Part shown: positions 50,394 through 52,683 of the stretch, one piece after another | Layout of the letters: each line of letters begins with the position of its first letter | Position numbering within the stretch: position 1 is the first letter of the stretch | Origin: Escherichia coli | Lineage (GTDB): Bacteria; Pseudomonadota; Gammaproteobacteria; Enterobacterales; Enterobacteriaceae | Length of the DNA stretch: 64,000 bases | Assembly (NCBI RefSeq): GCF_011045215.1 | Contig: NZ_CP049201.1 | Strand: one strand, 5' to 3' | Made by a program: the position numbers and the translations under genes | Notes under the pieces: generated by a model | Database searches by the model: none | Seen by the model: only the letters and a program-made list of their open reading frames with translations | What the model was told of the DNA's origin: nothing

Positions 50394-50615
50394 TTAATTC
50401 AGCGTGACGCTGCGTAATACGACATAGGGGCCGTTGCGGTTCTGACGGCGTTCAGCGAAGACCGCGAGCACACCGCTGATATCCTGAACCTCCTGCCCAG
50501 CGTAGTGGCAGATGCTGCCAGACCATTTGTATTTACCCGTGCAGAAGGGAAACAACCGGGACTGCGGATGTTGGCGGTATATCGCCATAGCCTGACGTTT
50601 ACTGATAATTTTCAT
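50394..50615 (-). CDS. DUF987 protein (YeeT/YkfH-like)
   Basis: 73-aa ORF MKIISKRQAMAIYRQHPQSRLFPFCTGKYKWSG...GVLAVFAERRQ..., matching the recalled YeeT sequence. Confidence 0.8.
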   Translation of the reverse strand: MKIISKRQAMAIYRQHPQSRLFPFCTGKYKWSGSICHYAGQEVQDISGVLAVFAERRQNRNGPYVVLRSVTLN

Positions 50616-50635
50616 TGGGTTATTCTCCTGTTGTG

Positions 50636-51115
50636 CTACAGCCAGCCACGATCTGCAAACGAGGTGATCTCCATGCCGCCGACCACCAGGTGGTCCAGCA
50701 AGCGGATATCAACCAGGTCCAGAGCCTGCTGAATACGCGTAGTGACCTGACGGTCTGCCTTGCTGGGTTCAGCCTCCCCGGAGGGATGGCTATGGGCGAC
50801 AATGACAGCGGCGCAGTTATGCTTCAGACCTGCCTTCACCACTTCGCGGGGATGGACCTGCGTATGGTTGATGGTGCCGGTAAATAGCGTTTCGTGGGCT
50901 ATCAGGCGATGCTGGTTATCGAGAAAGAGCGCGGTAAACTCTTCCCGCTCCAGTGACGCGAGCTGCAGGCGCAGCCAGTCGCGGACGGCATGGCTGGAAG
51001 TAAATGACGCGCCGGTTTCACGTAGCTGGCACTCCAGCAGAGATAAGGCTTTCCTGACTGTCTGCTGGTCGGCAGGGGCTAATTCACGGGCAAACAACGG
51101 TAACTGTTGCTCCAT
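50636..51115 (-). CDS. RadC-like JAB/MPN-domain protein (YeeS/YkfG/YfjY-like)
   Basis: JAMM-type motif [18 protein letters not shown]; start taken at MEQQLPLF inside track ORF 50636-51217 to avoid a 90-nt overlap with the upstream gene. Confidence 0.8.
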
Positions 51116-51126
51116 AGCGGCTGACC

Positions 51127-51597
51127 TCAGTCGATGATGTGCATGATGGCGTTGCATTCCGCGTGGTTGAGCGCGTAGTCCCGCAGGCGGTAGTAGTGCT
51201 CCGTCATGGCGTCGCATTCGGTACGGCAGGCATGGTGGCTGAAAGCCATCAGACAGACCGCAATCCCTGCAGCTTCGGCACTCATGTCACCGCCGTTGCC
51301 GTTCATCGTGTTAAACAGCGACCAGAGTTCATCGTTCTCCACTTCCGGGGCCATAAACGCGCCGCCGTTGCTCAGCGTGTAAAAATTCCAGATGCCGCCG
51401 CTGTAGTCCGTGCAGAAGCGGTCCATCCACGCGAAGATGGTCGGCTCAAGGATTATCCACTGCGGAATGCTGCCAAAGTGCTGCGGCCAGAAGCTGATGC
51501 GGTTCTCATCGGTTACCGGTATAGCGATAATCTGATGCTGAGCCGCAGCAGGAGCATCTGCTGCGGGTGTGAACAGTGGCAGAGTGTTATCGGTCAT
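51127..51597 (-). CDS. Antirestriction protein, KlcA/ArdB family (YafX/YfjX-like)
   Basis: 156-aa [21 protein letters not shown]...; family assignment from recalled similarity to the CP4 yafX/yfjX products. Confidence 0.7.
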
Positions 51598-51864
51598 GTT
51601 GTTTTTCCTCTTTCATTCATTGTGTTGGGGATACCGGTTCAATCGGAGTGACGGACAGGACTGCGCATAGCCGTCTTCATCACAGTGTGAGGGCCAGTGG
51701 CCGTCAGCGAGACTTAACCGGCAGAAACTGAGTTCACCGGGACGATAAAGAAGGTGTGAGCACAGGCGCACAGGTCGTCATCGGAGATGGGGCGGCTGCC
51801 GGGGTTGTTCTCCAGGGGGCAGGATTAATGGCGGCCGGGTGGGCGTTATCAGGCAGTGGTGGCA

Positions 51865-52683
51865 TCAGCTCAGCGCCTGCTGCAGTTTTTCCGCCATCAC
51901 CCAGAGTGCCCGGTTGAGCTTAACGTCGCCGTCGATGCCTTTCACCGCGCGGGTATGGCTGCGTTTGCCTTTGGCAGTACGTCCTGGCAGCCCCCCTTTG
52001 AGCAGGTTCTCCTGGCACCGATTAAAAACTGACCACAGGTCATCCTGACGGTCTTCATAGCGGCGGGGTGTCAGTATCTGCGCTTCCGTCACCGGCTGTT
52101 GCTCTTCCCCGAAGCGGTACGTCAGCGCGGCTCTGGCAAAAGCCTGTTGTGCCGGTGGCGGGAGTAAAAGCGACTGCATCGCATCACGCTTCTCTTCCAC
52201 CCGGTCGAACACACCGAGGACTTCGTAAGCGCCTTCAATCACTTTCTCCACGACATTTCCCCGGTGTGGCACTCGCACCTCGCCAAATGACTGCCCGCAG
52301 ACGAGACCGTTGGTACAGATGGCACGGAAATACCCCGGCAACATCTGGTAACTGGACGAACCGTCATGCGAATTGAGCAGGATAATTTCCGGCACCTGCT
52401 GACCGGTTATCTGCCCGGAGCGACGCAGGCGCAGCATATGTTTCGTATGCTCACGGCGGCTCTGGTCCCTGACGCGGGTCTGGCAGGCAAAGAACGGCTG
52501 GAATCCTTCACGCTGCAGGTTCTCCAGCAGGGTAATGGTCGGTATGTAGCTGTAATGGTCTGAACGGGACACGTGCTTACCTTCCCCGAAGACGCTGGGA
52601 ACAACCTGCATTAATTCTTCATGGGTTAAGGGACGGTCGCGGCGGATCTGATTGATACGGCCAAAGCGGCTGGCGAGTCGCAT
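51865..52683 (-). CDS. DUF932 protein (YafZ/YfjQ-like)
   Basis: 272-aa ORF MRLASRFGRINQIRRDRPLTHEELMQVVPSVFGEGKHVSRSDHYSYIPTITLLENLQREGFQPFFACQTRV..., closely matching the recalled YfjQ sequence. Confidence 0.8.
   Translation of the reverse strand: MRLASRFGRINQIRRDRPLTHEELMQVVPSVFGEGKHVSRSDHYSYIPTITLLENLQREGFQPFFACQTRVRDQSRREHTKHMLRLRRSGQITGQQVPEIILLNSHDGSSSYQMLPGYFRAICTNGLVCGQSFGEVRVPHRGNVVEKVIEGAYEVLGVFDRVEEKRDAMQSLLLPPPAQQAFARAALTYRFGEEQQPVTEAQILTPRRYEDRQDDLWSVFNRCQENLLKGGLPGRTAKGKRSHTRAVKGIDGDVKLNRALWVMAEKLQQALS

Follow-up and report, generated by a model that had tools for sequence, protein, structure and literature searches.

What is a run of short, tightly packed genes for a DUF932 protein, an antirestriction protein, a RadC-type protein and a DUF987 protein doing beside a toxin-antitoxin pair in Escherichia coli? 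We addressed this question in a stretch of 64,000 nucleotides (nt) of contig NZ_CP049201.1 (assembly GCF_011045215.1), hereafter the window. A preliminary description of the window had treated the four genes as a cassette and had proposed an anti-defence or establishment module expressed on entry into a new host, a proposal that we find plausible. Our analysis makes it moderately probable that a CP4-type genomic island by a tRNA-Asp gene ends in a conserved block of which the four genes form the central part, and that this block has a joint role in establishment and retention. The gene block as such is already known and is present in the RefSeq annotation. What is new here is a broken small gene, a hairpin before the DUF932 gene, the extent of the block to ten genes over at least five genera, and negative fold searches for DUF932 and DUF987. 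In the direction of transcription, the block consists of the following genes (lengths in amino acids, aa; pI, isoelectric point).

51865..52683, minus strand: DUF932 gene (272 aa, pI 9.7; Pfam, E = 3.7e-49)
51613..51865, minus strand: remnant of a small Cys-rich gene (81-86 aa when intact; homologue alignment and tblastn)
51127..51597, minus strand: ArdB/KlcA-type antirestriction gene (156 aa, pI 4.5; Pfam PF03230)
50636..51115, minus strand: short RadC-type JAB/JAMM gene (159 aa, the start being Met35 of the listed open reading frame (ORF); Pfam RadC)
50394..50615, minus strand: DUF987 gene (73 aa, pI 10.2; Pfam PF06174)
50011..50370, minus strand: CbeA/YeeU-family antitoxin gene (119 aa, TTG start; Pfam CbeA_antitoxin)
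49583..49960, minus strand: CbtA-family toxin gene of the type IV toxin-antitoxin pair (125 aa; Pfam CbtA_toxin)
49095..49586, minus strand: DUF5983 gene (163 aa), its start overlapping the CbtA stop by 4 nt (ORF list, RefSeq)
48860..49063, minus strand: DUF957 gene (67 aa; ORF list and RefSeq name; same position in other genera)
47935..48803, minus strand: frameshifted DUF4942 pseudogene, the last gene of the block (ORF pieces 48240-48803 and 47935-48168)

A profile hidden Markov model scan with Pfam, run on the six concatenated proteins from DUF932 to CbtA, gave full-length matches for all six (E values from 1e-33 to 1e-50). All four family assignments of the preliminary description were therefore correct, and none of these genes falls into an unrelated family. 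The limits that it gave are those of the DUF987 stop (50394) and the DUF932 start (52683). RefSeq names the same genes in E. coli ATCC 8739 and in strain PapRG-06-5. The four genes are indeed co-directional and tightly spaced, as had been described, with the correction that the gaps are 11 nt (ArdB-RadC), 20 nt (RadC-DUF987) and 23 nt (DUF987-CbeA) rather than 12-23 nt; CbeA and CbtA are separated by 50 nt. No defence-system model in PADLOC matched any protein of the block. Four plus-strand ORFs (51139-51651, 50760-51137, 52068-52376 and 50615-50887) had no family match and were taken as antisense noise.

We then asked how far this gene order extends beyond the window. Using the DUF932 gene, the interval behind it and the ArdB gene as query, and accepting as a hit only one location that spans 80% or more of the query, which needs both genes, we found the two genes contiguous in at least 2206 of the 5426 complete E. 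coli genomes. Additional E. coli genomes carry both at 76-79% query coverage, and some part of the stretch is present in 5182 of the 5426, often in several copies. The same order, DUF932 and then ArdB, was found in five other Enterobacterales loci. The preliminary description had noted the position of DUF932 upstream of the antirestriction gene as different from CP4-6; this is the majority order and no peculiarity of the locus. The full order of DUF932, small ORF, ArdB, RadC, DUF987, CbeA, CbtA, DUF5983, DUF957 and DUF4942 is shared with Mixta tenebrionis, Klebsiella pneumoniae, Serratia marcescens and Salmonella enterica subsp. arizonae. Because ten genes keep their order across genera, the four-gene cassette is part of a larger collinear block, to which E. 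coli K-12 is the exception. The unit is thus not four genes, as had been assumed, but a ten-gene block bounded by two terminator-like hairpins.

The copies in these four other species have the small ORF intact and near-identical spacing to the window. DUF4942 is intact in three of the four, K. pneumoniae copies being shortened or missing; the intact genes of Mixta, Serratia and Salmonella encode 281-283 aa, and the region is marked as frameshifted by RefSeq in ATCC 8739 and PapRG-06-5, where the sequence is identical to that of the window. These islands also still have the upstream GTPase, WYL and YfjS genes, which the window has lost by deletion. The K. pneumoniae block has an extra gene of 72 aa without a Pfam match between ArdB and RadC (locus positions 7756-7974). 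In Enterobacteriaceae ESL0689 (locus positions 5354-6120) RadC and DUF987 are missing and the ArdB gene (143 aa) overlaps the CbeA start, whereas the DUF932/small-ORF/ArdB head, the toxin-antitoxin pair and DUF5983/DUF957 are kept. The block of the M. tenebrionis island is 82.7% identical in DNA to that of the window (47954-52695) over 4.8 kb; its RadC and DUF987 proteins are 94% and 92% identical to those of the window, compared with 58-73% for the K-12 paralogues. Judged by these identities, the block of the window is nearer to the Mixta/Klebsiella/Citrobacter lineage than to K-12, which points to exchange of the block between genera.

The assignment to a CP4-type (P4-integrase family) island rests on the position of the block next to a tRNA gene, and two features flank the block.

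47726..47802, plus strand: tRNA-Asp (GTC), an aspV-type integration site (ARAGORN; Rfam tRNA, 67.7 bits)
52803..53036, minus strand: DUF905 gene (77 aa), the upstream neighbour of the block (RefSeq on identical sequence; phrog_8779, 1.5e-26)

As expected for elements of this type, which insert at the 3' end of a tRNA or tmRNA gene, the island starts directly downstream of tRNA-Asp (47726-47802), with minus-strand genes that point toward the tRNA. Upstream of the tRNA lie rnhA and dnaQ, as in ATCC 8739. The window is E. coli chromosomal DNA. Positions 49500-53600 are 99.7% identical to ATCC 8739, and positions 47800-64000 are 99.8% identical to PapRG-06-5, with the alignment in two pieces. Genes for AlpA, DUF3987 and an integrase are present in related islands. 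Within the window the tRNA end was found only once, and the island extends past the window end at 64000; short repeats in 47800-54200 gave matches at chance level only.

The preliminary description had placed DUF932 directly upstream of the antirestriction gene. However, the two are 267 nt apart, and this apparent gap is not a spacer; it is what two frameshifts have left of a conserved but unannotated gene, Cys-rich and about 84 codons long. In strain EC101 a hypothetical protein of 81 aa is annotated at this interval, with an ATG that overlaps the DUF932 stop. The family comprises 110 related clusters, 79-88 aa long when full length, from Escherichia, Citrobacter, Enterobacter, Klebsiella, Salmonella, Serratia and Mixta, with the consensus GCRSISDDDLCAWC, YRPGELSLCRLS and WPSxCDxDGYAQSCP and five to seven cysteines. 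No match to it was found in Pfam (including with the 110 clusters), NCBIfam, PHROGs, PADLOC or the PDB sequences. Every intact copy overlaps the DUF932 stop by TGATG or TAATG, a stop/start overlap of 1 nt, and intact copies gave ratios of nonsynonymous to synonymous substitution (dN/dS) of 0.12-0.42.

In the window, the start ATG of this gene (51865-51863) likewise overlaps the DUF932 TGA. Alignment with tblastn placed pieces of the small protein in three frames, the middle piece reading LENNPGSRPISDDDLCA. The tail is 49 codons in one frame, stops at 51613, 15 nt short of the ArdB start, and shows 91% identity with the Mixta protein over an alignment of 46 residues. Relative to Mixta, the window lacks 1 nt within the CAWC motif and has a net change of -1 near codon 15. 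ATCC 8739 and PapRG-06-5 have the remnant exactly as in the window, and the protein collection holds no gene call for either of the window fragments. The CREC-629 copy is frameshifted as well: a 2-nt insertion there creates an ORF of 284 codons (locus positions 9783-10637) that runs in frame into ArdB; a fusion of this type may explain the "antirestriction protein" labels on small-ORF fragments in databases. RefSeq locus-tag numbering skips one tag at the small ORF in both ATCC 8739 and CREC-629, and we conjecture that a gene call was once made and later dropped.

Decay is thus present next to the four named genes, in the small ORF and in DUF4942, and is absent from the four themselves, a distinction that bears on the suggestion of the preliminary description that a decayed module would tell against its proposal. 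DUF932, ArdB, RadC and DUF987 align end to end with the K-12 paralogues and the CREC-629 copy, free of frameshift or truncation. We calculated dN/dS by the Nei-Gojobori method against the Mixta, K. pneumoniae, K-12 and CREC-629 homologues, at synonymous divergences from 0.3 to more than 1.5. The ratios were 0.07-0.12 for DUF932, 0.11-0.19 for ArdB, 0.11-0.23 for RadC and 0.03-0.17 for DUF987. Ratios of 0.03-0.23 at such high synonymous divergence indicate long-term purifying selection on the four proteins. CbtA (0.11-0.15) and DUF5983 (0.12-0.15) gave similar values, and within the block constraint is weakest on DUF957 (0.48-0.65). The exact ArdB, RadC and DUF987 sequences each occur on at least 1000 contigs from several genera.

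The antirestriction protein is the member of the set with experimental support in homologues. It matches Pfam PF03230 (Antirestrict; E = 9.2e-37, model positions 2-92 of 92) and phrog_10132, "anti-restriction protein" (1.3e-53). Its matches among solved structures are 2wj9, the crystal structure of CFT073 ArdB (E = 3.7e-70), and 2kmg, the nuclear magnetic resonance structure of KlcA (E = 3.7e-21). It is 68% identical to YafX and YfjX of K-12 and about 66% identical to the CFT073-type protein represented by the CREC-629 copy. With 156 aa, 17.5 kDa and a pI of 4.52 it fits the small acidic ArdB class; the E. coli ArdB proteins previously tested have masses of 17.3-17.8 kDa and pI values of 4.6-4.8 (PMC2836571). 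The test against type I restriction recommended in the preliminary description has already been carried out on these close relatives: YafX, YfjX and CFT073 ArdB relieve all four type I families (IA-ID) in vivo, and EcoKI was not inhibited by them in vitro (PMC2836571). For the copy in the window, homology at 66-68% identity suggests that it would likewise relieve type I restriction.

The RadC-type protein matches Pfam PF04002 over the whole model (7.1e-43, positions 1-121 of 121), with a weaker Prok-JAB match besides, scores 147.9 in TIGR00608 (cut-off 133.85) and matches 2qlc among PDB sequences (E = 6.8e-26). Its JAMM motif, H108-x-H110-x7-S118-xx-D121, is intact, with H108, H110, S118 and D121 invariant in the paralogue alignment. 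The equivalog model for chromosomal RadC/YicR (NF000642, PRK00024) gave a score of 164.2, below its cut-off of 180, and covered model positions 87-212 of 212. By these alignments the protein is the short form known from mobile elements, which lacks the N-terminal part of chromosomal RadC. The preliminary description held that functions other than antirestriction were unknown in this set; this is slightly outdated, as a protease function has been published, on weak support, for the CP4-57 homologue LfgB. LfgB was reported to degrade MqsA, and the five genes to form an operon bound by MqsA; its authors noted poor solubility and did not strictly exclude contaminating proteases in the casein assay (PMC10846083). 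An earlier comparative study made the case for nucleic acids, not proteins, as the substrates of RadC-type JAB domains (PMC5512222).

The other two proteins offered fewer clues. DUF932 matches PF06067 (3.7e-49, model positions 2-227 of 227) and phrog_12094 (7.5e-121), has 5479 related representative clusters at E <= 0.001, and is 76-79% identical to YafZ, YfjQ and the CREC-629 copy and 64% identical to an F-like plasmid copy. DUF987 matches PF06174 (6.8e-33, model positions 1-65 of 65), as do all listed homologues. The AlphaFold2 model of DUF932 had a predicted local distance difference test score of 94.2, and the confident models of DUF932 and DUF987 gave no significant match to any solved structure. 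A phmmer match (E = 2.3e-5) between DUF932 residues 193-260 and Campylobacter RmlC-type heptose epimerases (8db5 and relatives) was rejected as chance, the region being predicted to be helical. The papers found to mention DUF932 report no function for it, and nothing relevant was found for K-12 YfjQ/YafZ; the K-12 DUF987 members had no effect when tried as candidate DicA antirepressors (PMC10448788).

A link to plasmids was found in the families themselves. DUF932, DUF905, ArdB/KlcA, RadC-like JAB and DUF4942 are shared with plasmid leading regions, where they are co-directional and close together, and leading regions concentrate anti-defence genes (PMC11541004). RadC-like genes were found on 2351 plasmid records, 1651 of them predicted to be conjugative, and DUF987 on 58 plasmid records only. 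Given this link it is reasonable to suggest an establishment role for DUF932, ArdB and RadC; the link fits such a role, which is not proof of it.

Downstream of these genes, antitoxin and toxin are adjacent, with the antitoxin first (CbeA_antitoxin, PF06154, 4.5e-50; CbtA_toxin, PF06755, 3e-48), and a Shine-Dalgarno sequence, AAGGAAGG, lies upstream of the CbeA start. Comparative work regards CbtA/CbeA as a type IV system that two genes make complete (PMC5371832). At 50370-50397 on the minus strand lies the best sigma-70-like match of the region (TTAACA, 16 nt, TAAAAT; 10 of 12 positions). It is located at the DUF987 stop and reaches as far as the annotated CbeA TTG start; unless CbeA in fact started further downstream, it could not serve the pair as an internal promoter.

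Two terminator-like elements bear on how the block is transcribed.

52718..52747, minus strand: G+C-rich hairpin with a T-rich run, terminator-like, the upstream boundary of the block (13 pairs in the scan; folds)
48806..48827, minus strand: terminator-like hairpin of 8 pairs (7 G-C) between DUF957 and DUF4942 (consensus scan only)

The first of these (52718-52747) ends 34 nt before the DUF932 start. A hairpin with a T-rich run lies 25-45 nt upstream of DUF932 at each of the 11 island loci that we compared, yafZ and yfjQ among them; stem sequences vary from lineage to lineage, and five of nine consensus pairs are kept through two-sided changes. It is a terminator-type hairpin of 9-13 bp, not a long hairpin of the Frpo type. 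In the consensus scan, the total of terminator-like sites in the region was not above shuffled controls. The space between the hairpin and the DUF932 ribosome-binding site is too short for a standard promoter, and read-through of the hairpin would be the simplest possibility for transcription of the block, which is probably transcribed as one unit. For the CP4-57 homologues a single operon, lfgABCDE, has been reported (PMC10846083). In strain 042, a six-gene linkage group with antirestriction and RadC genes was derepressed in hns and hha mutants, and four to six copies of this group were reported in most strains (PMC6480617). In K-12, yafX and yfjX are preceded by a hairpin of their own, GCCAGC...GCTGGC with a T-run about 20 nt before the ATG (CP4-6 locus 3708-3760, minus strand; CP4-57 locus 20860-20919, plus strand).

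We regard it as the better-founded interpretation, and as somewhat more than an even prospect, that the block serves its CP4-type island both in anti-restriction/establishment and in retention; its genes could then work together as follows. By analogy with its homologues, ArdB would switch off host type I restriction on arrival. The CbtA/CbeA pair, from what is known of its family, would penalise loss of the island. RadC would act as a metal hydrolase of the JAMM type, with protein or nucleic acid as its substrate. DUF932 and DUF987, small basic proteins in which we recognised neither a fold nor a catalytic motif, most likely bind DNA or a host protein. In the resident state, expression of the block would probably be kept low by H-NS/Hha and by the terminator-like hairpin before DUF932. 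A more far-reaching version, which we put forward only tentatively and think rather doubtful, is that DUF932, the translationally coupled Cys-rich protein, RadC and DUF987 are all counter-defence or establishment factors that work with ArdB on the arrival of an island or plasmid in a new cell; the block would then be a portable, leading-region-like operon of non-conjugative islands, and the DUF932 hairpin a regulated read-through point that limits its expression.

Several observations weigh against a combined establishment and retention block. The surrounding island is decaying, with two frameshifted genes, a 3757-bp deletion and a copy of the insertion sequence (IS) IS110, and experimental backing in homologues exists for ArdB alone. 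DUF987 is nearly absent from plasmids, which is a misfit with the leading-region picture. No relaxase, traM or transfer genes are annotated in ~34 kb of the near-identical PapRG-06-5 island, so entry as single-stranded DNA is not supported. A sigma-70 scan gave 5 sites against 4.0 expected, none of them upstream of DUF932 or ArdB. The 267-nt interval between DUF932 and ArdB folded no better than shuffled sequences (z scores of 0.74 as DNA and 0.43 as RNA), so that no single-strand promoter of the Frpo/ssi type was found there, and Rfam matched only the tRNA and nothing in the interval. On these grounds we ruled out both a single-strand promoter and a structured RNA in the interval.

These weaknesses have to be set against those of the alternatives. 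If the block were a domesticated host stress module, its RadC-like protease would degrade MqsA and free the RpoS response, as proposed for LfgB/YfjY, with the neighbouring genes riding along. In K-12, oxidative stress is reported to induce yfjXY-ypjJ-yfjZF, a yfjY deletion to be sensitive and to be complemented, and MqsA to be lost in vitro with purified LfgB (PMC10846083); the intact JAMM motif of the window RadC is compatible with such an activity. However, the window protein is only 58-62% identical to YfjY, the caveats of poor solubility and of contaminating proteases in the casein assay apply to LfgB itself, and RadC-type JAB domains have been argued to act on nucleic acids (PMC5512222). 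A target specific to K-12 would leave unexplained both the conservation of the block in at least five genera and the RadC-like genes on 1651 conjugative plasmids, and we consider this explanation unlikely. RadC and DUF987 might instead be accessories of an extended CbtA/CbeA module, serving antitoxin turnover or toxin activation, with ArdB and DUF932 forming a separate upstream unit. Such a division would suit CP4-44, where yeeS-yeeT-cbeA-cbtA occurs without ArdB and DUF932, and the 72-aa gene of K. pneumoniae, which suggests a module boundary between ArdB and RadC; DUF987 is moreover confined to Enterobacterales islands (319 clusters), with 58 plasmids against 2351 for RadC. Yet the toxin-antitoxin pair can do without RadC and DUF987, as ESL0689 has lost these two and retains both CbeA and CbtA; a 214-aa gene sits between DUF987 and the antitoxin in CREC-629; and the pair is regarded as a complete two-gene system (PMC5371832). 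We hold this division of the block to be improbable.

The signs of decay in the island invite a further explanation, namely that the block is a silent, decaying remnant devoid of present function, its order kept by recent inheritance only. The frameshifts in the small ORF and DUF4942, the 3757-bp deletion that removed GTPase and WYL regulator genes, the IS elements in the island and the repression of homologues by H-NS/Hha (PMC6480617) would all be expected of a remnant. It is difficult to reconcile, however, with four named genes that are full length and have dN/dS of 0.03-0.23 at synonymous divergences of 0.3 to more than 1.5, and with exact ArdB, RadC and DUF987 sequences on at least 1000 contigs each in several genera. 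This makes a functionless remnant very improbable, and a selected block with establishment and retention roles remains the interpretation that we prefer.

Outside the block, the island has further features of note. At the deletion point, 54047/54048, the window lacks 3757 bp present in PapRG-06-5; the missing stretch holds part of a DUF4339 gene and genes for a YfjS/YafY lipoprotein, two hypothetical proteins, a WYL/HTH regulator and a GTPase. ATCC 8739 matches the window only as far as 54047. Further into the island, on the minus strand and following the PapRG-06-5 annotation, lie an IS110-family transposase gene (55207-56376), an EAL-domain gene (57243-58790) and the gene for an autotransporter of 1403 aa (59345-63556). 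Around 57000-59000 the G+C content falls to 0.38-0.41.

Few accessory gene sets of E. coli are duplicated more often than this block, which also recurs across Enterobacterales; yet, leaving aside the toxin-antitoxin pair, function has been tested for just one gene. The roles of DUF932, the Cys-rich protein, RadC and DUF987 would clarify how islands and plasmids become established in new hosts and why these genes persist. What the window adds to existing annotation is that a supposed intergenic gap is a broken small gene missed by annotation pipelines.

As the preliminary description had stated, copies of the cassette are present in the CP4 elements of K-12, as they are in other islands. Its statement that the order differs from that of CP4-6 was also accurate and holds for CP4-57 too: in both, DUF932 follows a GTPase gene and ArdB follows DUF905. 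CP4-6, by the tRNA gene thrW, has the same five families in the same orientation toward the tRNA gene at its edge, with proteins 60-80% identical to those of the window. Its order is ykfA (GTPase), yafZ (DUF932), two pseudogenes, yafY, ykfB and ykfF (DUF905), then yafX (ArdB), ykfG (RadC), ykfH (DUF987), yafW and ykfI. CP4-57 has the same five families in the same order and with tight spacing in yfjX-yfjY-ypjJ-yfjZ-ypjF (lfgABCDE); the proteins are 58-73% identical to those of the window, ypjJ having a shorter and divergent C-terminus. Its DUF932 gene, yfjQ, comes after the GTPase gene yfjP, 6.4 kb upstream of ArdB (lfgA), and ArdB itself follows the pseudogene ypjI and a different hairpin. 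ypjI aligns with ykfF and is thus a decayed DUF905 gene. CP4-57 lacks the small Cys-rich ORF and the DUF5983/DUF957/DUF4942 tail, and CP4-44 is reduced to yeeS-yeeT-cbeA-cbtA. The ArdB protein of pathogenicity island (PAI) II of CFT073 (2wj9) is of the same family and also from a chromosomal island, but of another lineage, linked with Ag43; the near-identical ArdB of CREC-629 stands in a DUF932-ArdB-JAB-DUF987 context like that of the window.

The plasmid counterparts differ from the island block mainly in their company. In an F-like plasmid, DUF932 is the last gene before the transglycosylase-traM region with the origin of transfer (oriT), and the leading region also holds ssb, DUF905, ParB, psiB, psiA and hok. 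In IncL pOXA-48, genes for JAB/RadC, DUF4942 and an antirestriction protein and ssb form one co-directional stretch. Such sets adjoin oriT, travel with ssb, psiB and ParB and use single-strand promoters of the Frpo type, whereas neither oriT nor ssb was found at the island of the window (from annotation; no oriT search as such was made). DUF987 and CbtA/CbeA, in turn, are not typical of plasmid leading regions. With five families in common, the block looks like the chromosomal-island counterpart of these early-acting gene sets.

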